Source: an uncultured Akkermansia sp. | GTDB lineage: Bacteria; Verrucomicrobiota; Verrucomicrobiia; Verrucomicrobiales; Akkermansiaceae | Reading direction: 5' to 3' | Assembly: GCA_947632055.1 (NCBI GenBank) | Contig: CANRNS010000001.1 | Span: 2,047-66,046, forward strand | DNA: 64,000 bases | Shown: positions 11,027 through 38,954 of the stretch, one piece after another | Layout of the letters: the number at the start of each line of letters is the position of its first letter | Position numbering within the stretch: the stretch's first letter is position 1 | The notes under the pieces: model-generated | The model's input: only the letters and a program-made list of their open reading frames with translations | Databases searched by the model: none | Told to the model about the DNA's origin: nothing | Made by a program: the position numbers and the translations under genes

Positions 11027-11101
11027 ACGGTGAACGCGAACATACCCGCATCCGAAGAACTATAAGCTTCCTCCACGAGTCCGCGCTGCCCCGATTATCT
11101 C

Positions 11102-11279
11102 TTTTTGAAAGAGATATACTGAAGACAATGGAATTAACTTATTGCATGTTAGGAACTCATGATATTTTGCAATTCAAAGTATCGTTGGATACGACCGACA
11201 ATCTCTCTAAGCTCAAATGATTCTTAGTGATTTTTATTCAAAAATATGTGATTTTAGGCTTGATAATCTCTTTCAAAAA
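11102..11279. promoter_or_regulatory. Putative invertible promoter segment bounded by a 14-bp perfect inverted repeat
   Basis: tttttgaaagagat (11102-11115) and atctctttcaaaaa (11266-11279) flank an AT-rich segment immediately upstream of the polysaccharide operon. Confidence 0.65.
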
Positions 11280-11396
11280 ACGATGCTCGTATCTCCTGCA
11301 TCAGAGCCAGAGCAAACGCATTTTTTCATGCGTTTGCCCTATTTTGAGGCATTCCAGACTATACAATGGGGTGCAGGTATGGTATATTGGCAGAGT

Positions 11397-20549: not shown

Positions 20550-23500
20550 TCAGAAGGTGATCTTGTAGCCTGCGCTCGCGTTCACGCTCGTCCAGCCGCG
20601 ACGGTACTCGATCGAGGCGTCCATGAAGATGCTGCCGTTGCCGCTCCCCAGCGGGATGGTCAGCCCGGCTCCCGCTTCGATGCCCACCGCTCCCACTTCC
20701 GCGCTCTCCACCTTCGCCATCGTTCTGGACCCGATGATGCCGTTGGTTGCCTTGCCGGAGCGGTCTCCCGCATCGGCCTTGAGCAACAGGCGCGCCTCAA
20801 AGATCGAATCGCGTTTGAAGGCGTTTTCGCTCACCACGCACTGGAAGCGCGCTCCCATCCCGAAGGTCAGCACGCTCTGCCGCATGTCATCCACCTTCAA
20901 GCCCGCGTCGCTTCCCGTCTCCGTGTACCCCTTGATTCCCACGTGCCGGAACTCCACATTCACGATCGGTTGCAGCGCCGCCGTCCCCCTCTCATTCATC
21001 AGTTTGGTGTAGCCCAACTCGTACAGCGCGCCAAAGGCATAGCCATTCGTGCTGCCCTTCGTGCGGTAGCTGCCGCTGCCGTAGTTCACCGTGCGGTTCA
21101 GCCGCACATCCGCCAAGCCTCCACTCACCACGAAGGTGTGCATCCATGGCCCCTGCATCGTGCGCATGAAGGCCGACAGGTACATCGTGTCCAGGTGACC
21201 GGTGGCGGAATCGGCGGCGTCCGGCCTCAGACGTCCGTACATCGCCGTCAGCGCCACTCCAACGCTCGTCCGGTCCGACAAGTCCGCCCCCACGCCGAGG
21301 CTGCCGCCCCAGTTGTTGAGCGTGTAGCCGGGCAAATAGCCGTCCGCATCCAGCTTGTGGTAGCCGCCCTCCGCGTTGATCCAGGCATGCCAGGTGGGGA
21401 AGACGTCGTACTGGTCGTAGCGCGCCTCGCTGTTCACCGTGGTGGTGCGGTTGCGCATGGTGTTGAGTTGGCGGTGCAGGTCTTCCGCCAAGGCCGGGGT
21501 GAGAGTGGAGATGGACGCGCCCGCCACAGCCGTGAGCGTACGCTCCATTCCCGCGGCGTCCTTCCCGTCCATCATGCCGATGACGGCCATGCCCAGTTTC
21601 GCGTAGTCCGAGTTCGGATTGTTGAGCACATCCATGAAGGCGCCCCATTGCGTCTTATCCTTCAGGAAATCCCACAACATCTCCGCACCTGCCAATCCGT
21701 TCTTCCCGGCGTTGGGCATCACGCGCTCAAACTTGTTGTCCTCCGCCTTCTTCGTCGTCACGGTGATGTTACCCTTTTCATCCACTGTCACATCCGACAA
21801 ATCGTCAAAGACAAAGGCGCTGCCGCTCAGCGTCACTTTGTCTTTCAGAGTCTCTTGGCTCTGCTCTGTCGTGAAACCGAGAGTGAAGGATTGTACACGC
21901 TTGCCATCACCGTGCACCTCCAAACTGCCCGATTCGCCCACAGTGAGCTTCCCAGAAACAGGGGCCTCACTGCCCGTCTTGGAGGTGTCGACATCCATGC
22001 GCAACTTGCCGTTCACCGTCACATCGCCGAACGCAGGGGGAGCCTTCTCTTCAGAGCCCTCGGAGGTCTTCTCCGGAATCAGGTTCAGATTAAGCTGGGC
22101 GCCATCGTTTACAGTGAGTCCCCAGTTGGATCCACTTTCCGTGGTCACATTGTCGAGCGTGAAGGTCCCGCCTTCCACCACCAGCGTGCCGGCAGTGTCG
22201 GAAGGCTGGTTGCCGGAGCTCGCCAGCGTACCGGAGAAGGTGCCGCCACTTACAGTCAGCTTGCCGCCCTTCGCGCTCTTGAGCGTGCCGTTGCCATTCA
22301 GGGCGGAAAGGCTGCTGTTGCCCGCACCCACGTCCAGCACGGTGTCCTCTCCGTCCATGTTCACGCCTACGCCGTCCAACTGCGGCTTCTCCTCTTCTCC
22401 GCCTCCGGTGAGCGTGAGGCTGGCACTGTCCTCGAGGGTAACGGTTCCCGTGCCATCGCCGGTGAATTGAGTGGATGCTAGCGTATTCTTCCCCTCAAGC
22501 ACCAACTCAGCGCCCTCAGTTATCTCGATCTTATTGTCCTCGGTGTAACTACCCTCCTTTTCCTGAATTTGCCCTTTGATGGTGGTCTTGCCGTTTTGCA
22601 GTTTTAATCCACGCTGCTCGACGCCCTCGACAGCCCCCTCGTACGCGAACTCAAGGTTTTGCATGCTGTTGTTCGCGCCGCGTAGCACCAGCGCTCCTTG
22701 CTGGATGCTTGTGGTGCCATCTGTCAGTTGGTAGTTGTCGCCCACGGTCAGGGTGCCCTTGCCGGTCTTGGTGATGTCCACGCCGGGTCCTCCAGTAATC
22801 TTCCCCTTGAAGGAGGTGTCCTGCCCCCTCACGGTGGTGTCATCTGGTTCGGGCAGAGTTTCGCCTTCGTGACCATTCATGTTCACGTTCTCGTGATAGG
22901 TGTTGTCCAGTTTCACGTTCAGGCGGTTCTTCCCAATGGCATCTTCCTTTGCAGTATTATTGATGGCAAGCTCCGTGCCTTCAGTACCCAGCAGGTTGTT
23001 CACCTTGGCATCCTTAGCGGAAGAATCACTGCCATCCCAATTCAGGGTCAGCGTCTGTCCATGCAGTAACACGGTCGCGCGTTTGTCCAACAAGTCCGTG
23101 ACTTTGTCGCTGACCGGACTGTCGCCGCCTTCCTTCCCGTTCACGAGGTACAGGTCCTGCGTGGTGCCCGTCATGCTAATGCCGTCCTCCGTGTAGCTGA
23201 ACGAAGAGATGATGGTGGAAAGGATTTGCGCCACCGTGTCATCCATGCCGGCCAGAGGGTTTCCGTTGTCAGGATTATCGTTCCGATTCCATGATTTCTC
23301 GTCCCACGAGCCGTTTGCCAAAGCTGTCAGGGTAACGGTCCCCTCATTTTCATCGAACAAGTCAAAAATGTCTTCGCTGAAGGCAAGTTGAGTGTTGCTT
23401 CCGCGTTTCACCTTGGAATCACCTTTCTTCTCTTTCCATTCGATGAGAGCCGTACCCTCAGCATTCTCAGCTGAGAAGTGCAGCTCCAGCCCATGGCTCT

Positions 23501-26500
23501 CATCAACTGTGTAGGTGCCTGTCACGCCGGTGAGCTGTCCGTGCTCGTTGATGGTGATGCCGTCCAGATTGCTTGCAGCCATCCCGTTTACATCCACCAC
23601 ACCGCCCTGCGGCGCCGCTTCGCGCGGGGTGGCCTGCAGGGAATAAGCCCGTGCCGTTTGTGAAGCGCCCGATGCCAGTGCCGTACTCACGTATAAGCCA
23701 GCATTATCGTTGAGTTTCTCCTCGAACCCTTCACCCAATGTTACGTTGGAAAGCACAATGGTTCCGGTTCCGTCTACGTCTTTCGTGTACCCCGTTAAAT
23801 CAATGTGGCCTTTTCCCCCACCCAGCACACCGCCCAATACGATGGCTCCCTTGCTGGAATCGCTCGTGTCCAGCGTGACACCGCTGCCCAGTTCTCCGGC
23901 TATCACCACATCGCCCGTGCCAGTGGCCTTCACGGTGAGGGCCTCTCCTTTATTTCCCAAGCTGCCCGTCAGGGTCACTTGATCCTTGGCATCGACCTCG
24001 AGCGTGCCCGAACCGCTCACATTGGCTTGCACAATGCCGCTGGCCGCCTCTCCCGAGAGTGTCCATGTTGAATTCCCACTTTCTCCGGTGTTAAGTGTGC
24101 CCGTGAAGTTGTATATGTCTCCGGTGAGCGTGCCTTGGCTGCCCTCCCCAAGCGCCTCGAGTGTCAGAGTGCCGCCGTTTTCAGCAGTCTCCCCGCTTTG
24201 CAGGGTACCGGTAAGTGTCACTGTGCCGCTCAGCGTGGTCTCTCCATCCACGAGAACCGTGCCGGCTTTCACCGTGTTCCCGTCGTCGGAAGAGGAGGTA
24301 AGAGAGGCGCCGGCGAGCGTGAGCGTCGTGTTTCCATCGCCCAATCCATCGTCGCTGCCGATCGTGACATGACTGCCACTGGCCAACTCAATATCGCTCA
24401 CGTCGTTTTGACCGCTCAGGACGACGTTTCCGCTCTCCACGCTCAGGACGCCCTGACCGGTCACACCGCTCACTTCGAGCGAGCCCGTGGTAGATTTCAG
24501 TTTCAGCTCAGCGTGCTTGCTCACTTCAGCTCCGCCGGTGAGTTTCGAAGTCGAGCTGTCATTGCCTCCGTGCGCATCGAGCGTGAGCGTGCCGCCCTCC
24601 ACTTTCATGTGTCCGGCGTGCTCAATCTCACCTATTTGCTCCATCCAGGAGAGGGTGAAGTCGCCCGTCCCGGTCTTGGTCGTGCCGGTGTCCAGCGCCA
24701 TCTCGAGCCCATTGTTGTCGCTTACGTGGGTGCTTTCGTTTCCCCATGTCACGCCACCCTCACCGACTTTCTCGTCCACCTCCACTTGCAGCACGTTGCC
24801 GACGCTGTCCTCCGTCACCAGCCCGCTCACGTCCTGGCGGGCTCCTTCCTTGACGTAGCGTAGGGCGCTTCCCTCGCGCAACTCCAGCTGAGTACCTTCA
24901 GGCAGGGCTTCATCATGTCCCAGTCCCAAGGTGCCCTCTACGATGGCTTTCGGAATGCTTGTGTTCTTCAGGTTTAAGTCCAGTTCAGCCCCTTCTTCTA
25001 CGACCAACAGGCCTTCGCCCTGGATATCCAGTCCGCCGCCCGCATCGTTGCCTTCAAAGCTGTATTGACCGCCTTCGACAAAGACGTTGTTCGGAGTTAC
25101 GGGTCCCTGTACCTGCACCTGACTGCCCTTCGGATCAGCTCCTTCCTCCGTGAAATGCACGTCTTTGCCACCTGGAGCTACCGGCCCTTCGCCTTCTACA
25201 GACTCCCATTCCTTCTGATCATCATCGTTCCACGTCCCTCCACTGTTACCGTCCCACTTCACCCCCGTCTGGCCATCCCAGACAAGTCGACCTTCTTCAT
25301 CCAGATGGAGATCCGTGTACCTCCACGACGCGCCCTGTACGACTACATCAAAGTACTTCACCCACTCGGATTGCCATGAACTGCCCTCAACGTTGAAGAA
25401 GTCCACACTGGTTTCCCCGGATCCGCCTGTCAGCGCATCCAAATAATCCGATGTCAGGTTGAGCGTGATGGGCGCGGATCCTGCCGCCGTGCCGAATCCT
25501 CCCCCAAGCGCCAGGTGGGCGAGGTGAGCGGGATCCGCCCCTTCCGCGACATCCAGCGTGAGTCGGGCATTGCTGTCCCAGTTCACCTCCCCGGTTAGCG
25601 TCAATTTGCCTCCCACCAAGGTGAGCTGCGCGTTGCTGCCAACGCTGAGCGAGCTCGTAAGCTCCCCACCCGCGATGCGCAGGTGCGCACCCTCTCCCAG
25701 CTGCAAATTCGCAGCGATTCTACTTTCGCCATTTGTGACATTTGTCACGATCAGGGGTGTATCGCCTTCCACGACCAGGGTTCCACCGCTCAGCTCCAGC
25801 CTGCCGCCGTATTCACCACCGCCCATGGACTTCAAGGTCACTCCTTCGCCCACGCTGATGACGCCGCCACCACCGCTCAAGGTCCCGCTCACCGCGGCGG
25901 AACCGGCAGTGAGATGCACATGACCTTCACCTGCCGTGCTCAGCCCTCCAAGCGAGAGCTCTCCTTCCCCTTCCCAGACAAAGCTGCCCCCCTGCGCCTT
26001 TAAGCTGCCGCCAACGTTCATGCTCGTTGATGGTGGGCTTGATAGCGTACCATTGTCAGTGCCGCCAACGTGAAGCAGACCGCCCAGTACATCGACGTCA
26101 CCGCCCACGCTGATGTTGCCGGCGATGTATTGTTTATGTTCCTCGTCCGAACGTTCATTCATCGTGAGGTTGCCCCCCACCGTCAATGTCCCCCTGTAGG
26201 CGCGTTGTTGCTTCGTCCAAACATCGGCATTGGAGTTGAACGTCCACGTATCGTCGGCCACAATCTCCAAGTCCTCGACCATGATATTGCTGCTTCCTGT
26301 GCCATTGTGCGACCTCAGACCGCCTACGGTCAATTTGCCGTGCTGCTTCTCGAAGCTGCCGTTGCGCACCTCCAGGCAGGCATCCTCCAAGTTTGTATCT
26401 CCCTCGCCGGTGATTGTGGTCGTGGCGCCGTTGTTCACGAGTCGCAGGGCACAGCCCGTATCTGTGGGTGTCTCTCCGCTTCCCATCACGATATTGCCGA

Positions 26501-29500
26501 TGGTGTTCGTGCTTTCCAAGAGAATTTGCTTGCCCACCATTTCTACGTTCCCAAGTGCGTTTAGATTCTGCACTTTGTTCCAGCTGTCACCCGTCGTAGT
26601 TGTCCCCATGATGCTCATCTTTATCCCCTCCGCCACTTCCAGATTCGCTCCGTCGAAGGTTGTGCCACTTCCCTCGCTTAAGTCCACCACAAAGGCGCCG
26701 GTGCCGACCATCTCTGCTCTCGCATTGGTTCCAACGCTCAACAGATCATTTCTTCCCCGGAGTGTCAGCGTAGATCCTTCTTCCAGCGTGATAGTAACTT
26801 TATCCTCATTAATGACCTTCAAACTTCCAGTGAAGGTAGCTGTCTTCCCCGTTTCAAGGGTCAGCCAATCCTTCAGAGTTACCTCCAGCCCAAAGTTGCT
26901 TTCCATCGCTTGCAAATCCATGGTTACTACAGTCAGTCCGTTGCCTGAACCTTCAGCAGCCAGGAAATTCACTGTACCGCCCATGGTGATCAGCTCACTA
27001 GATTGCACAGCGCCGCTCACCTTGATTGTTGCGTCTTCCTCTTCATCGCTATTAAAGGTGGTGGCGGCGCCGTTCGTGAATGTCGCTTCGCTATCCCATA
27101 CAATGCTGCCGCTACTGCTCTCAGCTGCCCAAGTGAGGTCGCTTTCCTCGTGCAGGCTACCCGTCCAAACTACATCATTCAGTTTGGTGAGAGTTAGAAT
27201 GCCGGAGGCGTCGAGTGACGGTGTGTAGCCAATAATGAAGTCAAAAGTCAGATTGCTATTGCTGTATAATGAGGCAAGCGTTGTTGCCGCAGCGCCTCCG
27301 AAGAGGTGAAGCTTCCAGCTTTGAGAACCGTCATCTCCTGTTGTGACATCGCTCAGGTGTTCCTGAACCCACTCTTCCACTCCGGTGAGGGTTAGTGTAA
27401 GCGTATGGCCATTGTTTGTGATTCCCCCGAGTGTTAATGCGGCAGGATCTTCCACTCCCACGCCCGCTTCCCGCACGTCCAACTGCATCCTGGCATTGCC
27501 ATTCAACGTGATGGAGCCCAGAGTGTTTGTTCCCGTCCCCTGAATGATGAATTGGCTCGATCCGTTCAAGGTGAGAGCCATCCCTGATGCATTCACATTC
27601 CCCAGCACTGTTAGCACATGTCCGCCATTATAGTTTACCGTGCTGCTGCCGGTGGCAGTCAACGATTTAATCGTTGCGCTTTGCATGATACTGAGAGTTC
27701 CCCCATTCAAGACGATGCCGTAGCTGTGCATATCCAATGCCGTTGCGGTGGATAATTGGAGAGTAGTCCCTTGGGACATCTCAATTTCTCCGCCCTCGTT
27801 TCCAATCATTTGGAAATTTTCATCAATTTTCAAGATGGCATTCCCACTTCCTTTGATCACAAGCTTGTGACCATGTCCATCAAACGAACCGGCATAACCT
27901 CCTCTACCGGCAAAATGCAGTGTAACATTTTCCACGTAAATAGTGGCATCATTCGCCAACTCCACATCCCACTTCATCCAATCTTGAGCTGTCACATGGA
28001 GCGCTCCTGTGTTTTCGTCATTGCCATGCCCCTCAAGGATGAGTTTTCCATGCTGGGTATAATAGCCTTGGTAGTCAAATACTTGAGAAACCGTTGTTTT
28101 CAGGGTGGCTCCGGACGCTATCTTCAATTCGCGCAGGAAGCTCATGCCCTTGCCTATGTTTGTAGCATTAGCGGCAAGAATCAAGGTGGAGTCACTTGCC
28201 ACCTCGAGTCGTCCAATGCCCTCATGAGTGTTATCACGCTGCAGATTGGTGTCACCCGCTGCGAAAAGAGCGGCAAAGAGGTTGTTGTTTCCATTGACGG
28301 TCACGGTGTCCGCATCCAGCACCACGGTGCCATCTCCGGAGAGCGTGGTGCCGGTCCAGTGGCTCGCTGTAGTGTCAGATACGCTAATTGTGCCGTTTTC
28401 TGCCACGATCATATTGCCCAGATTTTTCGTGCCTTCGCCACCCAGCGTAAGCTTTCCCGTGATTTTTCCTCCGTTGAGGGCAATGTCGCCTGCGCTTTCA
28501 AAAGTGACGCTTGCGTCGTCTTGCACTGTAAACGTCCCGGTGGCAGTTAACGAGGAACCCTGTTCTCCGGTGAATTGCCACTTACCATCGCGCACTTCGA
28601 TGTCATGAGGCCTCACCTCCCCGGAGATGGCGATGGAATGGTTTTCGTCTGTTGCATCAGTGAAGATGATGCTGTCACCTGCCACGAAGCTGCTTTCATT
28701 CCCGTACGGATCGAGCCAATGATCATCCTGAAGCTCATTCTGCCACGTTGTTACCCCGCTGCTCCATGTTAGCGTCTCTACACGAGAGACAAAATGCACG
28801 ACCCCATCTTCGTCCACGGTGAGTTCGCGTCTCCCTTCGGTGTAATCACTTGCGAGTCTGGCTTTCAAAAACTCCAGCGCTTCCTCTTTATTCCAACCGT
28901 CGGCAGTGGTATCAAAGAGCTTGTAATCCCAATCACTGTATGACGTTAGCCCCGTTAGGGAGAGTTCAAGGTCTGTGATATCTTTCAGCGATGTCAGAGC
29001 CCCATCCGTCAACTTGAGTTCCCCACCATGAATCTGTAGCGTCCATTTTCCCTCTTCTCCTGACAGCTGTATTTCTCCGCCCCCGACTTCCAACACACCG
29101 CCCACTCCGAGAGTCCAGGTTTGTCCGCGCGTGGCAGTCATGCCGCTCAACGCTTTCACGGTGCCGTTGCCCACCGTCAGCGACCCCGTCGACACCGTTC
29201 CGCCCAGCTCCAATGTCCCTTCGGTGACGGTCGCATCTCCTGTCACCGTCAACCCGCCGTTGGCTGTAAGTTTGCTTCCGCTGCCAGCCAACGCAAGGTG
29301 ATGGGCCGTCAACAGACCGCTCACCGTCAGTGTACCCGTGTTGCCCGCCTCCGAACCACCTATGGCAAGACCGCTTTCAAAGCCAACACCCACCGTTAGC
29401 GCACCGTTGATGGTGCCCGTCGCTCCCCAGCCAACCTGCATGCCATCGTTTAAAAGCTCACCACTTGAGCCAGTGTAGCCGTATACCGAGAGATCGCCGT

Positions 29501-32500
29501 ACACCGTCAAAGTAGACTTGCCTTCCCCGGAAGTTCCAATCACCGTCACTCCACTGGCTCGATGCGTCACATCGCTTACATCGGACTTGCCAAGCGTCAG
29601 GGTTCCGACGGAGCTACTCGTTTCATTGTGTTCACCAACCGTTATTTGCCCGCTACCGCAAACCTCTCCCACACCTGGCGCTTCTGTTCCTTTTTTGTTA
29701 CCGCACAGATACCCTTCAATCGTCACATTGGCACCGTCCGCCACCGTCAACTTGGCATAATTGTTTAGAGTGGCATTCCCCGTCACAGTTAACGTTGCTC
29801 CTTCACCAGCCACGCCAATGTTCCTAGTTACTGTCAAGAGCCCAGCCTGCAATGTGCCCCCCGTGACAGTCAACCCCGTCACAGTTAAATCAGTGCCGTC
29901 TCCACCGACATAGAGCTCATGGGTAAAGCTCAGCTCACCTGCCTGCAAGTCGAGGCTCTTCAGAAGCGTTCGTTCAGTAGTCGTAAACTCCTGGGTGCCC
30001 TCTCCTTTTTTCACCATGCTCATGCTCTGATTGTTGACGACTCCCGAGAATGTCTGCTGTTCCTCACTGCCGACATCCAGCACCAACTTACCGTCGCCGT
30101 TGAAGGAGCCATTGCTGCCGGAGAGCCCTGCAAAGGTGTAGCCATCTGTTGCCGTCGTACCGACACTCAAGGTGCCTCCGTTCATAGTGAGGAGACCGCC
30201 TGTCTGTCCATTCTCATAATCCAAGGTTAGAGTACCACTGGTCGAGACTGTGATGTCGGACGCCCTCCCAAAGCTGAAGCCGTTCCCCAAAGTCAGACTC
30301 CCGCTCGTCACGGTCAGGGTCGTCCCCGAGAAGGCTCCCGTGTAGCTGAAAGCCGTCCCATTCCCCGCGTACTCAAAGTTTGTCTCAATGGCGCCTGCGA
30401 AACTTCCCCCATTCCCGGTCAATTTCAATAATCCGGAGCCGGTGATGGAGCCAAATTGATTTTGCATGCCTCCGAGCGTGTTGGTAACCGTCAGGACAGA
30501 GGTCTCCCCCAGGGTAACCTCACCACTCCCATCGATGTTGAGAATGTACGCCGTAACTGTTCCTGTCGTGGAAAGCGTGCCGAGAACGTTCAACGTGTTG
30601 CCGACATTTGCCCTATCTCCCAGCAGGAACGTTGCTCCGGTACTCACAACAATCGTTCCATTGTGTGTCGGTGCAATCGTTCCGGTGTACGCTTTCGTGC
30701 CCTCACCGGCCAAGGTCATTGTAATGCCACCCCCAAAGCTCACGCCACCCGCACCCGACAGGGTTTGAAACGTGGCATTTTTTTCCATTTGGAGCGTTGA
30801 GCCTTCTTGCAGCTGCATTTCCACATTGGCAAATGTATCGCCAGCATCCGTATTCATGAACAACTTGGCTCCCCGGTTCAGGAGGAAAATACCGCTTCCC
30901 GCCTCTCCTTCTGCCATCTCATACCCAGCATAAAATCGGAAATTTACATTATTCGCTCCGGCAGCAAAGGTCAGTGTGTGTCTATTGAGCGATAGTTTCC
31001 CCGGCGTATTATCGCCGCCAGCACCACCATCGAAAGAAAAGTAGTTATTTCCCGTGACTTCGGTGTAGAGAGTCGCGTCGCCCGTCAGACTCACGTTCCA
31101 TTTTACCCATACCGCTGTCGTGCCGCTTGTCAGCGCGCCATGACCGTCTGTCGTTCCGCTGCCTTCCAATTCGATGGTGCCAACTTTTGAGTAGTTGCCT
31201 TGTAGTGAAGAGTTATCAAACACGTTGGCTCCCAATTGCAGAGTTGCTCCATCCTTCACGGTGAGCTTCTGAATGAGACTCAGTCCTTTGCCAACGTCGT
31301 TGTTATTAAGAGCCAGTGTCGTGCCTCTCGCAATCTTGAACCGCCCGATACCCGCGTGAGAGTCATCACGCTGGATAGCGGTATCGCCCGCCGCGAAGAG
31401 GTTAGCGAAAAGGTTAGCGTTCTGATCGACTGTCACGGTGCCATTCGCATCCAGCACCACGGTGCCATCTCCGGAAAGCGTGGTGTCCTTCCAGTTGCTT
31501 GCTGTGCCATCCGTGATAGTAAGGGTGCCATTAATAGTCGCTGTGCCGAGGCTCTTTGCCCCCGTAAAGTTCAGCTTCAAGTTGCCGGAAACTTCCGCTT
31601 CCCCTACCTTGAAAGAAGTCAATTCACTGAAAGTGGCTGTCGCACCTGCTGCCACCCTCAATCTGCCGACGGTATGAACTGAACTCCCTTCTCCGGAAAA
31701 TGTCCAATCTCCCGACTCGAAAGCGATGTTGCCAGGTTCCACCGTGCCAATAATCGACACGTCTGTGTCGACCGAGCTATATTCACCCGTTGTGGTGAAG
31801 GTGACAGCATCGCCATTGGAGAAATAGGTGCCACCTTCACTGCCCGACATATTCCACATGGTATCCTCGCCACCCGTTTGCGCCTGCCACGTGTTGCTAT
31901 CCGAAGAGCCGTTCCATGTGAGCTCTGTAATCGTTCCCTGAATGGTCAGAACACCTTGGGCACTCAGCTCATAATGCTGGGTGCGGCTCAGGGGTCTCAA
32001 ATGCGCGGCAAACGCATTCCAGAGAGACTGATTCTCCGCCAGCAACTTCGCGGCCAGTTCGCTGCTCACCAGCTGCAAGCCCGTGCCATCCCAACCGATC
32101 AATTCCAGCTCGCCTACAAGGGATGACAAGGTCGTTGTGCTAAGGTTTAGCAGGGTATGTCCTCCACCGGTGAGGTAGCTGGAAACGTCCACGGAGAAAA
32201 GATTTTCCAGATTGATATTTGTCAGGTCACTCTCGTTTGCCGCGCTCAAATCCAAGGTGCCACCCGTGAGCTGAATCTTAAGCCCCGTATTCGTGAATGA
32301 AAAGTCATGATCCGCAACACTACCGAGCTCTAGCGTTCCTCCGCTCACCGTGAACCCTGTGCTCACATTCACCTCACCGCCCAGCGTCAGGCTTCCCTGG
32401 GTCAGAGTCACGGAACCCGCCTCCAGCCCGCCTTTCAGGATGACCGTACCGTCGGTGATCTCCAACTGATTATCATCTTGAATTTTGCAAGACCCCATAA

Positions 32501-34976
32501 CCGTGAGAGTTCCACCGTTCCTCACGACCACGTTCTCCGTACCATTACTGTTCAGTCCATGCAAATTCCCGCTGATCGTCACGGAACTCCCCTTGCCGCA
32601 AATTTCCAATGCATTGGCTCCTCCACCTACTGTAACACCGTACAAATTCGCGTCCCCGGTAATGTTGACCACAGAACCGGGGCCTTCCCCTTCAGTCGAA
32701 GCTTGCACCAAGAGACCTCTCGCCATTAACGCGTCACCAGAGGCTAGTCCTTCCCCTGTAATGGTAAGATTCCCAATGCTATCTTCATCTCCTATTTTCA
32801 GGACGCCAGCATGCGCATTGTTACCTTGTCCGCGGATGTAGCCAACCGTCAGGTTCCCTCCATCGGTGATGCTCAGATTGCCTCCTTGGTCATCGTTCAA
32901 GGAAAGACGGCTTTGGACTGTCATTGAACTGTTAGCACCGCTAATTTCGAGAGATCCAACCCACGCATTGGTACCGACTTGGAGCGTGCCTCCCCCGGTC
33001 ACCTTCACTTTGTTGCTGAGGTTGGGATTATTATCTCTGCCGGAATTTACTCCGTCTCCGTGCAGATTTTTCTTAATATCGAGAAGCCCAGCATCCACAA
33101 TGAGAGCACAACCATCATCGTAAACGCCATAAACATTTACATCGCCGTACACAGTCACCGTTGACTGGGTGCTTTCACCCTTGCCTTGTACTTTCAGACC
33201 TCGTGTTTTGAGAACTTCTCCTGCTTCTCCTAGTGATGCCTCGCTTCCCACAGTCAATGTGCCAATGCTATCACTTCCTTCTCCCACCAGAATACGACCG
33301 GCATGACCACGGTTGCTGTTTTGTGCGTTTTTTACCCCCTGCAAAGTAGCGACAGTCAAGCTTCCGCCATGATTGATGGTGAGAGTTGTGCCATCAGTTG
33401 GGTCATATAATCCCATCGAACCGGATATCGTTACATTGCCGCCATTGACGGTAAGGGAATGCCTAAAGTCCCAATCATGGTCAAATTGAGCGTGGGCATT
33501 TGTATTCACAGCGAAGTTTGACCAAGTCTCTCCGTAGTCGGCTTCGAACTTTAGCGTGCCACCCTCCACTGTGGTGGATCTCGTATCAAGATGGCTAGTC
33601 GTAAGGATTTGCGTGCCCGTTCCCCGTTTCACGAGGTCGACCTTTTTCCCGGCGTTGCCGACCTGATCTGAAAACTGCCCCGCGAAGGAGGGCATTTCTT
33701 CGTCATCATCTCCGCTGTAGTCGATGACGAGTTTAGCCATGTCTCCTCCTCCCTCGTCCAATTTAATTACTGAGTCTCCATTTCCTCCCGTCAGCCCTCT
33801 CACCACGTAGGTGGCGTCGGCAACATCTGCTGCTCCGGTGAAGTACAAGTTGCCGTTTACCACTAACACTGTGTTGGACAAGCTGCCGGTCTCCCCGGTA
33901 GTAGAGTAGCCGAGGACGAGGGTAGAGCCGCTGTCCACCTCGAGTTCGTGGATGTTGTTGTTAATTCTGGTCGCGTAGCTCACATCGCTGAGTGTAAGCT
34001 TGTGCGTCCCGGTCAGCTTTACTTTTTGGATGCCCTCTTGATAAGTTACCGTGGGGAAAAGACGCGTGAACCAATTGTCGGTGTCGGCTGAGAGCGTCTT
34101 ATCTGAGGAGAGTTCCAATTCCACGGTACCTTGACCGTGTACAAAGGCGTTTCCATTGATATTGGTATTATCCGCGCCTACCCTGAGCGTAGCACCTCTA
34201 GCAATGGAGATGCCTCCCTCCCCGGAGATAGCGTCCCCTTGCTCCAACAAATTGCCTGTCAACTCTAGCAATCCACTGCCGGTAAACTGCAGCACACCTT
34301 TCTGGATATCAACAAGCTTTGTTTTGACAGTCACATAATTTCCGAAAGTTACTGTTCCGGCGCGTAAAGTCAGCTCCTCAGCAATGGCGAGAATGTTTGT
34401 GGTATTGCCTTGCCCGGTAAAGTTGTAATTGGTCGTATCAGCACCTCCTGCCGCCCCCACCATGAGTTCCTGCATCGACACCGTCCCATCCGGTAAAGAA
34501 CCACTGACCGCTACATTGACGGCGTCCTTGTCTTGACCCGCGCTTCCCGCCAGCACGACCTGGTATTCTGCCAGGGAGTCGGCGTCTCCAGACCAGCCAT
34601 CACTGCTTCTAGCCGATGAAGAGAGGGTAAAATCGCCCTGTTGTGTCCACGTCAAAGCTAGATCCCCGCTTGCAATAGGCATCACGCCATTCGTGGCGGC
34701 AAGCAGCATGACGTCCTCCTCGCTGTTGGCGGCGAGGGGAGCATGTTCTTCTTCATCTTCACTCTCTGTCCCCAGAGCAAGCTCGTCACCGGCGGGGGCA
34801 GCCAGCGGGGGGACTTCGTCTGCCTGGGCGAAGGTCGCCGTGCTCCACAGCAGGGAGAAGGCGCCCAAGAGGGCCGTCCCGGATGCCACGGTGCGCCGCA
34901 GCGCGCGGCGTCCGGCGAGGGTTGCAAGGCAAGCCAACAAAGCCTTGCGGAGACCAGTAGGTAAGTGGAGTTTCAT
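20550..34976 (-). CDS. Giant (~4808 aa) autotransporter adhesin with a beta-helical passenger
   Basis: MKLHLPTGLRKALLACL extended signal region (start at 34976). G/T/S/N-rich passenger with PATR-like motifs (LVKRGTGTQILT, MVKKGEGTQEFT, TTKTGTGDFTLS, ITKTGKGTLTVG). C-terminal barrel from AWINAEGG, ending in GYKITF. Confidence 0.93.
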   Translation of the reverse strand: MKLHLPTGLRKALLACLATLAGRRALRRTVASGTALLGAFSLLWSTATFAQADEVPPLAAPAGDELALGTESEDEEEHAPLAANSEEDVMLLAATNGVMPIASGDLALTWTQQGDFTLSSSARSSDGWSGDADSLAEYQVVLAGSAGQDKDAVNVAVSGSLPDGTVSMQELMVGAAGGADTTNYNFTGQGNTTNILAIAEELTLRAGTVTFGNYVTVKTKLVDIQKGVLQFTGSGLLELTGNLLEQGDAISGEGGISIARGATLRVGADNTNINGNAFVHGQGTVELELSSDKTLSADTDNWFTRLFPTVTYQEGIQKVKLTGTHKLTLSDVSYATRINNNIHELEVDSGSTLVLGYSTTGETGSLSNTVLVVNGNLYFTGAADVADATYVVRGLTGGNGDSVIKLDEGGGDMAKLVIDYSGDDDEEMPSFAGQFSDQVGNAGKKVDLVKRGTGTQILTTSHLDTRSTTVEGGTLKFEADYGETWSNFAVNTNAHAQFDHDWDFRHSLTVNGGNVTISGSMGLYDPTDGTTLTINHGGSLTVATLQGVKNAQNSNRGHAGRILVGEGSDSIGTLTVGSEASLGEAGEVLKTRGLKVQGKGESTQSTVTVYGDVNVYGVYDDGCALIVDAGLLDIKKNLHGDGVNSGRDNNPNLSNKVKVTGGGTLQVGTNAWVGSLEISGANSSMTVQSRLSLNDDQGGNLSITDGGNLTVGYIRGQGNNAHAGVLKIGDEDSIGNLTITGEGLASGDALMARGLLVQASTEGEGPGSVVNITGDANLYGVTVGGGANALEICGKGSSVTISGNLHGLNSNGTENVVVRNGGTLTVMGSCKIQDDNQLEITDGTVILKGGLEAGSVTLTQGSLTLGGEVNVSTGFTVSGGTLELGSVADHDFSFTNTGLKIQLTGGTLDLSAANESDLTNINLENLFSVDVSSYLTGGGHTLLNLSTTTLSSLVGELELIGWDGTGLQLVSSELAAKLLAENQSLWNAFAAHLRPLSRTQHYELSAQGVLTIQGTITELTWNGSSDSNTWQAQTGGEDTMWNMSGSEGGTYFSNGDAVTFTTTGEYSSVDTDVSIIGTVEPGNIAFESGDWTFSGEGSSVHTVGRLRVAAGATATFSELTSFKVGEAEVSGNLKLNFTGAKSLGTATINGTLTITDGTASNWKDTTLSGDGTVVLDANGTVTVDQNANLFANLFAAGDTAIQRDDSHAGIGRFKIARGTTLALNNNDVGKGLSLIQKLTVKDGATLQLGANVFDNSSLQGNYSKVGTIELEGSGTTDGHGALTSGTTAVWVKWNVSLTGDATLYTEVTGNNYFSFDGGAGGDNTPGKLSLNRHTLTFAAGANNVNFRFYAGYEMAEGEAGSGIFLLNRGAKLFMNTDAGDTFANVEMQLQEGSTLQMEKNATFQTLSGAGGVSFGGGITMTLAGEGTKAYTGTIAPTHNGTIVVSTGATFLLGDRANVGNTLNVLGTLSTTGTVTAYILNIDGSGEVTLGETSVLTVTNTLGGMQNQFGSITGSGLLKLTGNGGSFAGAIETNFEYAGNGTAFSYTGAFSGTTLTVTSGSLTLGNGFSFGRASDITVSTSGTLTLDYENGQTGGLLTMNGGTLSVGTTATDGYTFAGLSGSNGSFNGDGKLVLDVGSEEQQTFSGVVNNQSMSMVKKGEGTQEFTTTERTLLKSLDLQAGELSFTHELYVGGDGTDLTVTGLTVTGGTLQAGLLTVTRNIGVAGEGATLTVTGNATLNNYAKLTVADGANVTIEGYLCGNKKGTEAPGVGEVCGSGQITVGEHNETSSSVGTLTLGKSDVSDVTHRASGVTVIGTSGEGKSTLTVYGDLSVYGYTGSSGELLNDGMQVGWGATGTINGALTVGVGFESGLAIGGSEAGNTGTLTVSGLLTAHHLALAGSGSKLTANGGLTVTGDATVTEGTLELGGTVSTGSLTVGNGTVKALSGMTATRGQTWTLGVGGVLEVGGGEIQLSGEEGKWTLQIHGGELKLTDGALTSLKDITDLELSLTGLTSYSDWDYKLFDTTADGWNKEEALEFLKARLASDYTEGRRELTVDEDGVVHFVSRVETLTWSSGVTTWQNELQDDHWLDPYGNESSFVAGDSIIFTDATDENHSIAISGEVRPHDIEVRDGKWQFTGEQGSSLTATGTFTVQDDASVTFESAGDIALNGGKITGKLTLGGEGTKNLGNMIVAENGTISVSDTTASHWTGTTLSGDGTVVLDADTVTVNGNNNLFAALFAAGDTNLQRDNTHEGIGRLEVASDSTLILAANATNIGKGMSFLRELKIASGATLKTTVSQVFDYQGYYTQHGKLILEGHGNDENTGALHVTAQDWMKWDVELANDATIYVENVTLHFAGRGGYAGSFDGHGHKLVIKGSGNAILKIDENFQMIGNEGGEIEMSQGTTLQLSTATALDMHSYGIVLNGGTLSIMQSATIKSLTATGSSTVNYNGGHVLTVLGNVNASGMALTLNGSSQFIIQGTGTNTLGSITLNGNARMQLDVREAGVGVEDPAALTLGGITNNGHTLTLTLTGVEEWVQEHLSDVTTGDDGSQSWKLHLFGGAAATTLASLYSNSNLTFDFIIGYTPSLDASGILTLTKLNDVVWTGSLHEESDLTWAAESSSGSIVWDSEATFTNGAATTFNSDEEEDATIKVSGAVQSSELITMGGTVNFLAAEGSGNGLTVVTMDLQAMESNFGLEVTLKDWLTLETGKTATFTGSLKVINEDKVTITLEEGSTLTLRGRNDLLSVGTNARAEMVGTGAFVVDLSEGSGTTFDGANLEVAEGIKMSIMGTTTTGDSWNKVQNLNALGNVEMVGKQILLESTNTIGNIVMGSGETPTDTGCALRLVNNGATTTITGEGDTNLEDACLEVRNGSFEKQHGKLTVGGLRSHNGTGSSNIMVEDLEIVADDTWTFNSNADVWTKQQRAYRGTLTVGGNLTMNERSDEEHKQYIAGNISVGGDVDVLGGLLHVGGTDNGTLSSPPSTSMNVGGSLKAQGGSFVWEGEGELSLGGLSTAGEGHVHLTAGSAAVSGTLSGGGGVISVGEGVTLKSMGGGEYGGRLELSGGTLVVEGDTPLIVTNVTNGESRIAANLQLGEGAHLRIAGGELTSSLSVGSNAQLTLVGGKLTLTGEVNWDSNARLTLDVAEGADPAHLAHLALGGGFGTAAGSAPITLNLTSDYLDALTGGSGETSVDFFNVEGSSWQSEWVKYFDVVVQGASWRYTDLHLDEEGRLVWDGQTGVKWDGNSGGTWNDDDQKEWESVEGEGPVAPGGKDVHFTEEGADPKGSQVQVQGPVTPNNVFVEGGQYSFEGNDAGGGLDIQGEGLLVVEEGAELDLNLKNTSIPKAIVEGTLGLGHDEALPEGTQLELREGSALRYVKEGARQDVSGLVTEDSVGNVLQVEVDEKVGEGGVTWGNESTHVSDNNGLEMALDTGTTKTGTGDFTLSWMEQIGEIEHAGHMKVEGGTLTLDAHGGNDSSTSKLTGGAEVSKHAELKLKSTTGSLEVSGVTGQGVLSVESGNVVLSGQNDVSDIELASGSHVTIGSDDGLGDGNTTLTLAGASLTSSSDDGNTVKAGTVLVDGETTLSGTVTLTGTLQSGETAENGGTLTLEALGEGSQGTLTGDIYNFTGTLNTGESGNSTWTLSGEAASGIVQANVSGSGTLEVDAKDQVTLTGSLGNKGEALTVKATGTGDVVIAGELGSGVTLDTSDSSKGAIVLGGVLGGGKGHIDLTGYTKDVDGTGTIVLSNVTLGEGFEEKLNDNAGLYVSTALASGASQTARAYSLQATPREAAPQGGVVDVNGMAASNLDGITINEHGQLTGVTGTYTVDESHGLELHFSAENAEGTALIEWKEKKGDSKVKRGSNTQLAFSEDIFDLFDENEGTVTLTALANGSWDEKSWNRNDNPDNGNPLAGMDDTVAQILSTIISSFSYTEDGISMTGTTQDLYLVNGKEGGDSPVSDKVTDLLDKRATVLLHGQTLTLNWDGSDSSAKDAKVNNLLGTEGTELAINNTAKEDAIGKNRLNVKLDNTYHENVNMNGHEGETLPEPDDTTVRGQDTSFKGKITGGPGVDITKTGKGTLTVGDNYQLTDGTTSIQQGALVLRGANNSMQNLEFAYEGAVEGVEQRGLKLQNGKTTIKGQIQEKEGSYTEDNKIEITEGAELVLEGKNTLASTQFTGDGTGTVTLEDSASLTLTGGGEEEKPQLDGVGVNMDGEDTVLDVGAGNSSLSALNGNGTLKSAKGGKLTVSGGTFSGTLASSGNQPSDTAGTLVVEGGTFTLDNVTTESGSNWGLTVNDGAQLNLNLIPEKTSEGSEEKAPPAFGDVTVNGKLRMDVDTSKTGSEAPVSGKLTVGESGSLEVHGDGKRVQSFTLGFTTEQSQETLKDKVTLSGSAFVFDDLSDVTVDEKGNITVTTKKAEDNKFERVMPNAGKNGLAGAEMLWDFLKDKTQWGAFMDVLNNPNSDYAKLGMAVIGMMDGKDAAGMERTLTAVAGASISTLTPALAEDLHRQLNTMRNRTTTVNSEARYDQYDVFPTWHAWINAEGGYHKLDADGYLPGYTLNNWGGSLGVGADLSDRTSVGVALTAMYGRLRPDAADSATGHLDTMYLSAFMRTMQGPWMHTFVVSGGLADVRLNRTVNYGSGSYRTKGSTNGYAFGALYELGYTKLMNERGTAALQPIVNVEFRHVGIKGYTETGSDAGLKVDDMRQSVLTFGMGARFQCVVSENAFKRDSIFEARLLLKADAGDRSGKATNGIIGSRTMAKVESAEVGAVGIEAGAGLTIPLGSGNGSIFMDASIEYRRGWTSVNASAGYKITF

Positions 34977-35050
34977 GATGCTGACGATTGGTGATGGAAG
35001 CAGACCTAAGGCGCGCAACACGTACGCGCGAGGACCCGCTTGCATGGTGC

Positions 35051-35375
35051 AGTATATCTCTTTTCAAAAGAGATATACTCGTCACGAAACTATAAATTAT
35101 TTATTATCAAATAATTATATATTAAAAAGTGCTTTCGTTTTTTCAAGGAGCGAAGAAGCATTTTTTTCTTGTGTCATACTTCATTTTCAAGGTCTTTGAG
35201 CTTGCAAGCGAGGCATCTCTTTTGAAAAGAGGTAGACTTTCTTTCGTTTCTCTTATTGATTGATCGGCAACGTTTAGAAAGTATCAATTTCTTTCGGGTG
35301 CGTCAACAGAAGATCCTGAGAAATTTTTTCAAAATTTTTGAAAAAGAAACTGGACATTGCTTTTGAAAAGAGATA
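35051..35375. promoter_or_regulatory. Putative invertible promoter region with three related sites (A 35051-35079, B 35215-35238, C 35360-35375)
   Basis: A/B form a perfect 17-bp IR (35058-35074 vs 35215-35231). A/C form a perfect 16-bp IR (35055-35070 vs 35360-35375). AT-rich interior directly upstream of the autotransporter. Confidence 0.7.
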
Positions 35376-35444
35376 CACACTCCGTAAAACAATTAGAGAG
35401 AGGGAGGGAAAGAGAGAATCATGACGTAGCAGGGAACAATGTGC

Positions 35445-35473
35445 TTGCAAGCCGGGCATGTAGAAGCTAGAAT
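35445..35473 (+). promoter_or_regulatory. sigma70-like promoter of the PutA-like gene
   Basis: TTGCAA-17-TAGAAT, ending 10 nt before ATG 35484. Confidence 0.65.
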
Positions 35474-35483
35474 GGGAGCGGAC

Positions 35484-38400
35484 ATGGGCGAGACAGAAAT
35501 GCGCACTTTAATAGACGATGCCCGCAGTAAGGGTTGGGCAGACCAGACGCTTGTGCAGCGGGCGACGGAACTGGCGCGGGAGGTGTACGCGGCGGCGCTG
35601 AGTCGGATGCGCGCGGAGGAACGCGCATTTCATGCGGCGGCCAAGAAGTTGGCGGTGGATGAGGAGAGCCGCCGATTTGTGCGCCGACTGTGCGAGGTCG
35701 TGCTGCATCCGGCCGAAGATTCGGGGGAGCAACTCAAGGGGATGATAGCGGAGCATGGCGGGGTGCCGACCTTTTTCAGTTCGATGGCGCGTTTGCGCAT
35801 CAGGGCGGCAGTTATGGCGCCGCGCAGCATGCAGGGCACGGCATTAGGGGAGCTCAAGCGCGTGTTCCGGTCGACTTTTGGAGAACTTGTATTGCCCACG
35901 CACATGAGCAAAGTGAGCCGCCGGGCGGAGGCTCTTGCCAGGGAGAAGATGCGGCTCGTGTTGCGTCCGTTGTCGCCGCGTGTGTTCGGACAAAAAGGAG
36001 CGGAACGCTACGAAAACAATTTGTTGGCTATCCTCACCAAACAGCCGGGGGTGGGGGTGGCGGTGGAACCGCTGAGGCTTTGTCCGGCGCTCTCTCTGGA
36101 TTCGCCGGAGTACGGCGCCCAACTGTTGGCCGGTAAACTGCAGCGTCTTTTGCAGGCAGCCCGGCAGGCCGGCGGTAGTCCCATCCACATCAAGACGCGC
36201 TGCAGCGATACCTTGGGGGTGGTGATGGGGGCGCTCAAGCGCGTGCTGAGTATGCCGGATTTGGAGACGGCCGAGGTGAGTGTGGAGCTGCCGGCCTACC
36301 TGAAGACGAGTCTCGACTACCTGCGCGACTTGACGGACTGGGCAACGATGCGCGCGGGTCGCGCGATCCGCGTGTTGTTGGTGAAGGGGGATTACTTGGA
36401 GGAGCAGCGCCGCTGCAGCGCCCGCTACGGATCACAAGATCAATTGTGCCATGGAAAGGCGGAAACAGATATGTACTTCATACGTCTGCTGGAAGCGGCG
36501 ATGGCATGCCCCGAGCAGGCTATTACGCCCGTGGTTGGCACGCACGAAGTCATGCACTTGAGCTATGCCGCTCTTCTTTGGGCGCGCAGCGGAAGAGAGG
36601 GCCTGCCACCCATCTCGCTGATTCATGGATTGGGCAACCACGTGGGGCGCGTGTTTGCCGAGCTGGGATGCCGGGTGGATTTAGTGGCGGGCGTGGCGGC
36701 CGAGGAGAGCGAAACGCGTGCGTTTGAACGCTACTTGCTACGCACTCTGCACGAGCTCGCCCGTCCGGATAGCTATTTGGCTGGCGCGAATGCAGCGAAT
36801 CCGGCGGAAATTGATTGGTCGGCCAAGGCAAAACCGATTATGGCAGCGCACAGCATGCGCGATTCAGGGAAAGCGGCATCTGCCGCCCAGCCTGCGCCTG
36901 ATTTTTGGAAACCGGCGGGGCTTTCAGCCCTGACGGAACGCGCCGAGGTCGATGCTTTTTACGCTGCTGCACGAGCCGAAAAGGAACGAGCTCAGGAACT
37001 CATTCCCCTGCGCTTAGGGGAGCGCGAGTTGGCCAGCCCGCTCACTTGCATTCACCGCTCGTTGATTGTGCCCGGATTGGAAGATTATCGCTACGCGGGG
37101 GCTGACTACGCTGCCGTGGATGCCGCATTGGCCTTTGCTGAGCGACTGACCGGCGAGCCCAAGCCCGGCATGGATGAACGCGCGGCGAGTTTGTGTCGTG
37201 CCGCGCGCGAGCTGAAAAAGCGGGCCCGGCAGTTTGTGGGGGCGCTGGTGCGCGATGCGGGGTTCACTGTGGCGGATGCCGCGGCGGAACTGCGCGATGC
37301 CCAGGAGGCTTTGCGGTATGCGGCCTCTCAGGATGAGACGTGGCGAGGCTTGCAGGATGGCGCTGTAGCCCGTGCCCGCGGCGTGGTGGCGGTGGCGACG
37401 GGATCCGCCCACCCGCTTGCCGAGGCGGCGGATGGTATTGCTGCCGCATGGATGGGGGGCAACACGATTGTCTATGTGCCGGCCACTTATTCTGCTTTGC
37501 TCGGTGCGCTCTTCTCGGGGCTGCTGAGGGAATGCGGGGTGCAGTTGATCACGTTGCCTTGTGCGGATGCTGAAATTGCCCAGCGACTTGTGACGGATCA
37601 CCGCGTGAGTGCGGCGGTGTGTGCGGCCGTTCCGCAAGTTGCGCGCCACTTGGTTGCCGCCAACCCGGATGCGGCTATATTGGCGTCCCCTGCTATGGGA
37701 CCGAGCGTGTATCTGGCGGAGAGCTGCGATTGGGAGCGAGCCTTGCGCGAGGTGATCGCCGCCGCCTTTTGTCGCTCCGGGCAGGCGTCCCATTGCCCGC
37801 ACATTTTGATGGTCCATGCGAGTTTGTGTGATGACGCTGCCTTTTGCGCTGCTATCGAGGACGCGGTGGCATCCCAGGAGCCGCGTCCCACATGGCTGGA
37901 GGGCGCACAGCTCGGCCCTGTCTCCTCTCCATTGGGTGACCGCGAGCGCAAGTTGCTTTCCGGTGAGTCGAGCAATGTGGAATGGTGGGTTGCACCTCGC
38001 GCGGAGAGTCCCGCCTCCCAACTGTGGAGCCCCGGACTGTGCGCCCACGTGCAGCCGCAGGACGATTTTGTGCGCTTTGGACAGCGTCTCCCCGTGCTGG
38101 GAATTGTGCGCGTGAGCGATGCTCGCGAGGCAGCCGTCATTCAAATGCGCCTTTCGCGCGGCAGCTCTGCCGTCATCTATTCGGAGGATGAGGAGGAGAT
38201 TGCCACATGGAGGCGCGAAGTGGATTGTCGGCGCGTGGGGGTGAACTGCTGCCCGTCATTGAGGCACGGCGCGTTCCCCATGCCCATGTGCAAGACAACG
38301 CAAAGCGCCGCCACGGGCCCGATGCGCGGGTTGATGAGCGGCGTGGTGGCCCTTTGTCACTGGGAAGAAAATGAGCGACCCTCTTCACGCAGCCCGCGCA

Positions 38401-38954
38401 GGAATTTGCAATTCGACCCCAAGGATGTTCTCCCCTCGTCCTCTCGTGTGGATGAAGCGATGCGGCTTTCTGCTGCAGCCGATTCCATCTCATACTGGTG
38501 GGAAAAGGAGTTTAGCTGCGAGCGCCCTTTGTCGCCGACGGATGGTTTGCAAGCGGTGTTGAGGTACTGCCCGGAGCGCGTATGCCTGCGCATTGAAAAG
38601 ACGCTCAGCGATGTTGATGTGGCGATCATGCTCATGGCGGCGATGCAGACACGCAGCCGCATTGAGTTGAGCGCTGAGGTTGAGCGCGATTGGCTCTCTT
38701 TGTTCTGTGAGCAGAACGGTGTATCGCTCAGTTATGCCAGCAAGGAGGACTTTGAGGCCAGCTATGCGGCGTTGGCGGCTCGCGGGCTTTTGCTGCGCGC
38801 TCCTGGGGCGGGGGACGAGGCTGTGGCGCGAGCGGCGACCTGTGGCCTGCGTACCGAAGCTTCGGCTGTGCTTGCTAACGGGCGTCTGGAACTCATGCGA
38901 TACTTGGAGGAACGCGTGGTGATACGCCCCATTGAGCGCATCCCTCAAGAGTGA
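35484..38954 (+). CDS. PutA-like protein (proline dehydrogenase + aldehyde dehydrogenase folds) with degenerate catalytic motifs
   Basis: LPAYLK, LLVKGDY, ETDMYFIRLL, VGTHE, YLLRTLHE, ARGVVAV, GNTIVY, AFCRSGQ and WSPG match the PutA layout and length, but key residues have diverged. Confidence 0.7.
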   Translation: MGETEMRTLIDDARSKGWADQTLVQRATELAREVYAAALSRMRAEERAFHAAAKKLAVDEESRRFVRRLCEVVLHPAEDSGEQLKGMIAEHGGVPTFFSSMARLRIRAAVMAPRSMQGTALGELKRVFRSTFGELVLPTHMSKVSRRAEALAREKMRLVLRPLSPRVFGQKGAERYENNLLAILTKQPGVGVAVEPLRLCPALSLDSPEYGAQLLAGKLQRLLQAARQAGGSPIHIKTRCSDTLGVVMGALKRVLSMPDLETAEVSVELPAYLKTSLDYLRDLTDWATMRAGRAIRVLLVKGDYLEEQRRCSARYGSQDQLCHGKAETDMYFIRLLEAAMACPEQAITPVVGTHEVMHLSYAALLWARSGREGLPPISLIHGLGNHVGRVFAELGCRVDLVAGVAAEESETRAFERYLLRTLHELARPDSYLAGANAANPAEIDWSAKAKPIMAAHSMRDSGKAASAAQPAPDFWKPAGLSALTERAEVDAFYAAARAEKERAQELIPLRLGERELASPLTCIHRSLIVPGLEDYRYAGADYAAVDAALAFAERLTGEPKPGMDERAASLCRAARELKKRARQFVGALVRDAGFTVADAAAELRDAQEALRYAASQDETWRGLQDGAVARARGVVAVATGSAHPLAEAADGIAAAWMGGNTIVYVPATYSALLGALFSGLLRECGVQLITLPCADAEIAQRLVTDHRVSAAVCAAVPQVARHLVAANPDAAILASPAMGPSVYLAESCDWERALREVIAAAFCRSGQASHCPHILMVHASLCDDAAFCAAIEDAVASQEPRPTWLEGAQLGPVSSPLGDRERKLLSGESSNVEWWVAPRAESPASQLWSPGLCAHVQPQDDFVRFGQRLPVLGIVRVSDAREAAVIQMRLSRGSSAVIYSEDEEEIATWRREVDCRRVGVNCCPSLRHGAFPMPMCKTTQSAATGPMRGLMSGVVALCHWEENERPSSRSPRRNLQFDPKDVLPSSSRVDEAMRLSAAADSISYWWEKEFSCERPLSPTDGLQAVLRYCPERVCLRIEKTLSDVDVAIMLMAAMQTRSRIELSAEVERDWLSLFCEQNGVSLSYASKEDFEASYAALAARGLLLRAPGAGDEAVARAATCGLRTEASAVLANGRLELMRYLEERVVIRPIERIPQE

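Follow-up and report, generated by a model that had tools for sequence, protein, structure and literature searches.

The window analysed here is a stretch of 64,000 nucleotides of DNA from an uncultured Akkermansia sp. It lies on contig C1 of the host genome (G000), which comprises 2.12 Mb in 151 contigs and is 87% complete. Between a giant autotransporter gene and a PutA-like gene, which are divergently oriented, the window contains an intergenic segment with three copies of one short site and what appear to be the separated parts of a promoter. The features of this locus, and of a related one elsewhere in the window, are listed by their positions in the window.

20550 to 34976, minus strand: giant autotransporter gene, the likely target of the switch; open reading frame 20550 to 35045.
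35051 to 35056, minus strand: putative fixed -10 box TATACT, immediately outside site A, toward the autotransporter.
35057 to 35073, no strand: site A, core TCTCTTT-TCA-AAAGAGA, centre at 35064-35066.
35074 to 35215, plus strand: module s2, about 141 bp, between sites A and B.
35216 to 35232, no strand: site B, core TCTCTTT-TGA-AAAGAGG, in inverted orientation to A and a direct repeat of C.
35233 to 35350, plus strand: module s1, the B-C segment, with an A/T-rich tract at about 35318-35349 upstream of the -35.
35351 to 35356, plus strand: TGGACA, the putative movable -35, directly against the inner side of site C.
35357 to 35373, no strand: site C, core TTGCTTT-TGA-AAAGAGA, the proposed inversion partner of A.
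35374 to 35379, plus strand: poor 'parking' -10 TACACA outside site C, faced by the -35 as assembled.
35439 to 38954, plus strand: PutA-like gene (Pro_dh and Aldedh), on the parking side of the switch.
35445 to 35473, plus strand: promoter-like TTGCAA-17-TAGAAT of the PutA-like gene, from a promoter scan.
11098 to 11283, no strand: second switch of the TCTCTTT family in the window, with two sites whose centres are TTG and CAA, 169 bp apart (G000 C1:13143 and 13312).

Read from the sequence, the autotransporter has a signal-peptide start, MKLHLP. The likely start codon is the ATG at 34976, and in the list of open reading frames the open frame continues to 35045. The C-terminal 500 residues match the Pfam Autotransporter beta-domain (E = 9e-35). 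The matches of the PutA-like protein to Pro_dh and Aldedh are moderate (E = 6e-23 and 5e-29). The region 34924-35040, made up of the signal-peptide start and a GC-rich palindromic element of the 5' UTR, is conserved among paralogous autotransporter genes of the host genome and of G047, G014 and G043, and it is here that metagenome depth peaks.

One 17-bp site, TCTCTTT-NNN-AAAGAGA, is present three times, as A, B and C, with A and B 159 nt apart and A and C 300 nt apart. The directional asymmetry of the sites lies in the 3-nt centre, which is TCA in A and TGA in B and C; it is because of these centres that A is inverted relative to both B and C, while B and C are direct repeats. A repeat search also found a perfect 29-nt palindrome at 35051-35079, with site A in its middle. 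With up to three mismatches allowed, the core motif is matched five times in the window, against 0.16 expected.

The initial annotation proposed that inversion of the A-C segment would assemble a promoter for the autotransporter, and its description of the DNA was accurate. It reported a perfect 16-bp inverted repeat, and 35055-35070 and 35360-35375 are indeed exact reverse complements, extendable to 19 nt at 95%. The hexamers it named are all in place: TATACT on the minus strand (AGTATA at 35051-35056), TGGACA at 35351-35356 and TACACA at 35374-35379. The 17-nt spacing is found for each pair of hexamers, the inner partner at site A being TATACT at 35074-35079. Its hand-inverted product, TGGACA-17-TATACT, is correct, and the ATG at 34976 would lie about 68 nt downstream of it. 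The separate promoter that it assigned to the PutA-like gene, at 35445-35473, was recovered by the promoter scan.

The site is not confined to the window. With at most one mismatch, the core is present at 55 genomic sites in G000, compared with one for the reversed control, and CTCTTT-N3-AAAGAG is the sole abundant palindrome of such geometry in the genome, with 37 copies against seven for the next. There are about 37 multi-site loci in G000, of two types: pairs about 165-170 nt apart and triplets with spacings of about 157 and 140 nt. Eleven of the loci have three sites. Centres vary among loci (TCA/TGA, TCG/CGA, TTG/CAA, TTA/TAA, TGG/CCA and CCC/GGG), with TCA/TGA common to about half of those in G000. 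Within a locus, the partner sites are the outermost ones, and the centre of one is the reverse complement of the other's at 36 of 37 loci in G000, 25 of 25 in G047 and six of six in G014. Such covariation is expected of a crossover region that needs a match between partner sites. Elsewhere in G000 the genes beside the switches encode other giant proteins and a fucosyltransferase, and on the opposite side of some switches there are housekeeping genes, for example those for seryl-tRNA synthetase and an LpxA-like acyltransferase.

Two side observations concern the setting of these loci. Over all contigs of G000, 20 of 55 site clusters are less than 800 nt from a contig end, where 6.3 would be expected (P ~1e-6); these assembly breaks at switches may come either from repeats or from mixed orientations. 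In addition, the switch at C12:29013-29313 of G000 is made up of three sites centred on TCA/TGA, and that of L064 (G047:C8:12400-15600) of two sites centred on TTG/CAA, between orthologous flanks of 88-94% identity. Replacement of switch cassettes seems to occur across loci or lineages.

Has the DNA between such sites been inverted? The contig C8 locus of G000, at the start of that contig and beside a gene for a protein of 13,940 aa, can be compared with its counterpart in G047. The flanks are colinear at 96-100% identity, and the 278-nt interior is inverted at 97.6% identity. Inverting C8 in silico between the centres of the outer sites produces a single colinear match of 591 nt to G047. A variant half-site, AATGCGA, is next to the -35 in both genomes; because it remains with the -35, the crossover is placed in the centre of the core. 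In G047 the ortholog of the 13,940-aa gene has TGGACA-17-TACACT, whereas in G000 the box on C8 faces TGTACA and the -35 is at the far end. The difference between the two is exactly the outer-site inversion, with TGGACA moved onto TACACT, and by comparison of the two sequences it is the same event as the one proposed for A and C. At a gene of 7,320 aa on contig C7, G000 and G047 differ in the converse sense.

G047 also has an ortholog of the autotransporter of the window, 77% identical, which adjoins TGGACA-17-TAAGCT. It is one of two divergent paralogous genes that have one triplet in common. At L052 2560-3400 (G047:C53), a single three-site switch is shared by two divergent paralogous autotransporter genes, and its one -35 could serve either gene, giving either/or expression. 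A search for the orthologous locus in G014 and G043 found no ortholog, the matches being limited to the signal-peptide region and the sites.

The sites have a consistent relationship to promoter-like hexamers. At 30 of 37 loci in G000 and at 23 of the 25 loci fetched from G047, one outer site, and one only, has a -35-like hexamer directly against its inner edge; from how often such hexamers occur in the genome, the probability of this placement in G000 by chance is about 4e-64. The hexamer is mostly TGGACA and sometimes TTGACA, TTGACT or TGTACA. At all 11 three-site loci of G000 it is beside site C, and a homologous A/T tract adjoins TGGACA at sister loci. Just outside the sites are hexamers of two kinds. 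Some are good -10 sequences (TATACT, TACACT, TAAACT, TAATCT and TAGACT) and others are poor or decoy sequences (TGCGCA, TGAGCA, TTCGCG and TACACA), the latter being common at the end that now holds the -35. Of the loci with a single -35 (n = 29), nine have TAnnnT as the box that the -35 currently faces and 16 have it at the other end, and therefore most switches in the assembly read as parked. Ordinary promoters of the organism are built alike: away from the switches, a TAnnnT follows T[TG]GAC[AT]-N17 in 24% of cases upstream of genes in the sense direction, compared with 8% on the antisense strand and 1.7% inside open reading frames.

Because the -35 abuts the inside of the site, and TAnnnT or decoy hexamers lie just outside, the 17-bp site would be the 17-nt spacer of a promoter. 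The initial annotation had put this forward for the one locus, with a movable -35 and a fixed -10, and its proposal gains support from the counts in both genomes and from the inversion at the orthologous locus. From the pattern of the hexamers, the split elements are predicted to have promoter activity once joined.

Invertons are already known in this genus. Akkermansia promoter invertons have been described as 'inverton group 138' (PMC11892184), include the cps1 capsule switch (PMC13343947) and have the inverted-repeat motif CGGATT..AATCCG (Jiang et al. 2019, as quoted in PMC13343947). Experimental inversion of this CGGATT-type family has been reported (PMC13343947; PMC11892184), and motif-based promoter tests on Akkermansia invertons gave weak signals (PMC11892184). 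A literal search for CGGATT-NN-AATCCG was uninformative; a variable-gap search resolved the classical site as CGGATT-NNN-AATCCG. G000 has two sites of the form CGGATT-N(0-12)-AATCCG, against 24-78 in several classical congeners. Classical loci have pair spacings of about 165 and about 300-315 nt and complementary centres. In the complete congener G007, TTG(A/T)(C/T)N is located 1 nt inside one site at 14 of 15 classical loci, and 'TA' is located 1 nt outside a site at 11 of 15, which again gives a spacing of 17 nt. Core and offsets differ between the two types, at 15 bp and 1 nt in the classical one and 17 bp and 0 nt in the TCTCTTT one, and the distance between -35 and -10 is 17 nt in both. 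This compensation between core and offset, which keeps the 17 nt, speaks more strongly than anything else for the hexamers as parts of a promoter and not as contacts of the recombinase.

What else is carried on the invertible DNA? In all 11 three-site loci of G000 the TTATTATCAA-like and TTTCTTGTGTCATAC blocks of s2 are conserved, and the TTTCTTGTGTCATAC block is oriented toward the -35 in nine of the 11. The module is flipped in C101, C12_29141 and L082 of G047, so that both orientations are present among paralogs; site B has therefore been used too. Folding of the plus strand of s2 is stronger than that of shuffled sequences (z -3.1). A terminator scan of the module found no terminator, and the fold is unlike between copies. 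The promoter scan found an autotransporter-facing, promoter-like TTGAAA-16-TAATAT inside s2, on the minus strand at 35146-35119, which by eye is not kept in sister copies. A candidate extended -10, TGTGTCATACN, was rejected as its last base varies. No promoter or terminator reading fits all copies of s2, and the module may be an accessory-protein or bending site. The two-site switches of about 167 nt are without s2, and have only the -35 and the sites in common with the triplets.

These features of s2 could also be accommodated if the switch inverts, but TGGACA is a contact for the recombinase or an accessory protein, and expression is set by other invertible DNA such as a complete promoter or a terminator in s2 or s1. 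TGGACA is nearly invariant, more uniform than a usual -35, as might be expected of a protein contact, and the strongly conserved blocks of s2, its promoter-like site and its fold above that of shuffles would suit a regulatory role for the module. We consider this unlikely. The classical family has another hexamer (TTGACT/TTGACC), a 1-nt offset and a 15-nt core, yet keeps the 17 nt to the outer 'TA', which a promoter would explain and a protein contact would not. The outer hexamers resemble TAnnnT at one end of a switch and are decoys at the opposite one, the two-site switches lack s2, and the s2 promoter-like site varies among sister copies.

Which enzyme might act on these sites? A search of G000 for serine recombinases (PF00239) found no match, in a genome that at 87% completeness does not prove absence. 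There are ten tyrosine recombinases in G000, six of which make up one paralogous family. Three copies of a 333-aa tyrosine recombinase, on contigs C20, C26 and C130, are 86-93% identical to one another, and none of the three adjoins a switch. Homologs of the recombinase family were found in 41 of 41 congeners searched; copies of the C20 type at least 79% identical (79-91%) were found only in G014, G047 and G043. These are also the congeners with exact TCTCTTT-type sites, 13 in G014, 39 in G047 (control 0) and 13 in G043. The remaining congeners, about 38, have 0-1 sites, with recombinase matches of at most 64% in those tested. The sites of G047 were predicted in advance from the presence of the recombinase and were then found. 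The association between recombinase and site is suggestive only, because the genomes are related and not independent. The RHR...H...Y region of the C20-type recombinase, its predicted catalytic part, aligns to XerA. A tyrosine recombinase acting in trans is the likely enzyme, and the C20 type, on its co-occurrence with the site, is the best candidate. Copies 89-92% identical are also present in L111, L121 and L136, rabbit MAG bins that carry the label Lachnospiraceae or Bacilli; mis-binning of Akkermansia contigs is a more probable origin than transfer.

We think it probable, with good though not complete confidence, that 35051-35379 is a three-site, split-promoter switch working by DNA inversion, in a lineage-specific branch of the Akkermansia inverton family. 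A trans-acting tyrosine recombinase, for which the C20 type is the candidate, would recombine TCTCTTT-NNN-AAAGAGA with the crossover in the asymmetric centre, and only sites with matching centres in inverted orientation would be partners. The site would double as the 17-nt spacer of a sigma-70-type promoter, with the -35 TGGACA and the A/T-rich tract on the invertible DNA and the -10 boxes in the fixed flanks. In the assembled state the -35 would be parked at C against TACACA, toward the PutA-like gene, and the TATACT of the autotransporter would have no -35 (OFF). Inversion between A and C would place TGGACA-17-TATACT upstream of the autotransporter ATG (ON), and inversion between A and B would flip the 141-bp s2 module. 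Given the TTGAAA-16-TAATAT in s2, the OFF state may not be silent.

Inversion between A and C themselves would follow from the membership of this locus in the family, and the locus was found in one orientation throughout: all the assemblies and contig sets examined have the parked (OFF) arrangement. Seven listed sequencing runs contain the stretch, none of them recorded as RNA. No strand-changing joints are listed in the Logan contigs of X1, X5 and X6, three rabbit/gut metagenomes in which paralogs cross-map heavily. Contigs of X1 and X5 span A to C in the reference orientation, and the joints listed are all 'skips' from paralogs, so that these runs speak neither for nor against inversion at this locus. 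The raw-read run X8 gave five reads at 99% identity or above, the organism being barely present in it. An independent ENA assembly, reached through an exact match to the PutA-like protein, is 100% identical with the orientation unchanged, and none of the JGI metagenome contigs scanned matched the fixed flank together with the site A core. Contigs report the majority state, so a minority of cells with the A-C segment inverted is compatible with a single orientation.

Is 35051-35379 then a fossil or locked copy of a family that inverts elsewhere, its autotransporter permanently off or under another promoter? The single orientation is what such a copy would display, and sites C and B have two mismatches and one mismatch, respectively, to the consensus core. 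We regard this as a little less likely still than a protein-contact role for TGGACA: the arms of A and C retain their perfect 16-bp inverted repeat with matching centres, sister sites that look functional are similarly mismatched (the inverted C8/G047 pair has a half-site with two mismatches), and minority orientations are dropped from contigs. That the palindromes are transcription-factor operators, or a dispersed REP- or MITE-like repeat without programmed inversion, would fit the palindromic form of each site, its position in promoters and the many copies at contig ends, but is very improbable and was rejected on the exact centre-to-centre inversion of C8 relative to G047, alongside the centres that covary as reverse complements within loci, the flipped s2 modules and a geometry in common with an experimentally inverting family (PMC13343947).

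The split-promoter reading of this locus invites a broader one, which we offer tentatively and would not yet rate an even chance: that all Akkermansia invertons, of the classical type and of the new branch, are split-promoter switches with the site as spacer. One -35 would alternate between a genuine -10 and a decoy, or serve one or the other of two divergent genes, the 3-nt centre would be an address that restricts pairing, though many loci share one centre, and three-site versions would add further states. If true of the whole class, this would amount to a principle of design that the literature has yet to state, and would account for the weak motif-based promoter signals in PMC11892184. Our literature search, outside which Jiang et al. 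2019 fell, found no paper on programmed inversion that divides a promoter at the spacer. The surface of Akkermansia, a gut symbiont studied in many laboratories, is known to be phase-variable, and if the site is the spacer, the two junction hexamers alone would tell whether a given surface gene is ON or OFF. The centre triplet may help to decide which sites one enzyme pairs. The rabbit-gut clade shows that the specificity of the site can shift from CGGATT to TCTCTTT with the geometry and the promoter logic kept, and inverton-finding tools reliant on known motifs could miss such branches. The split-promoter design would also be a compact natural template for recombinase-based switches.

The closest known systems are the classical Akkermansia invertons. 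The locus has, like them, an intergenic inverted-repeat segment of 150-320 bp near a surface gene, and it lacks their motif CGGATT..AATCCG. Genus, short arms, a 3-nt asymmetric centre complementary between partners, pair spacings, tens of loci per genome, a position near surface-protein and glycan genes, paralogous tyrosine recombinases and a -35-like hexamer at the inner edge are all held in common. Unlike the classical invertons, the arms are TCTCTTT/AAAGAGA and this locus has a third, internal site, B. On this comparison of sequences, 35051-35379 is a diverged branch of the published family, differing in motif and alike in architecture. The initial annotation, which set joining of -35 and -10 apart from classical switches, overrated the novelty of the split design, since classical Akkermansia invertons in G007 have the same split of -35 and -10.

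In the fimS switch of E. coli (FimB/FimE), Salmonella hin and the capsule promoters of Bacteroides fragilis (Mpi), a complete promoter is inside the invertible DNA, and with Mpi one recombinase acts on many loci. The locus described here is like these in that a short intergenic segment would be inverted site-specifically and a surface structure toggled. It is unlike them in that only the -35 and the tract upstream of it are inside the segment and the -10 boxes are outside the sites. The circle-junction promoters of IS3, IS911 and IS30, and the hybrid promoters formed with an outward -35 at IS ends, are reviewed in PMC9330008. There too a mobile -35 is joined to a -10 across a recombination junction, but through transposition or circle formation, whereas the proposed switch is reversible, programmed and two-state. 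A search of the 300-bp segment for a transposase open reading frame found none, and the switch elements are at fixed orthologous positions. In the R64 shufflon (Rci) and the vsa and vpma systems of Mycoplasma, coding segments are shuffled or genes are moved to a fixed expression site. The three-site switch resembles these in having more than two sites for one tyrosine recombinase, which would give more than two arrangements, but the modules shuffled here would be non-coding parts of a promoter.
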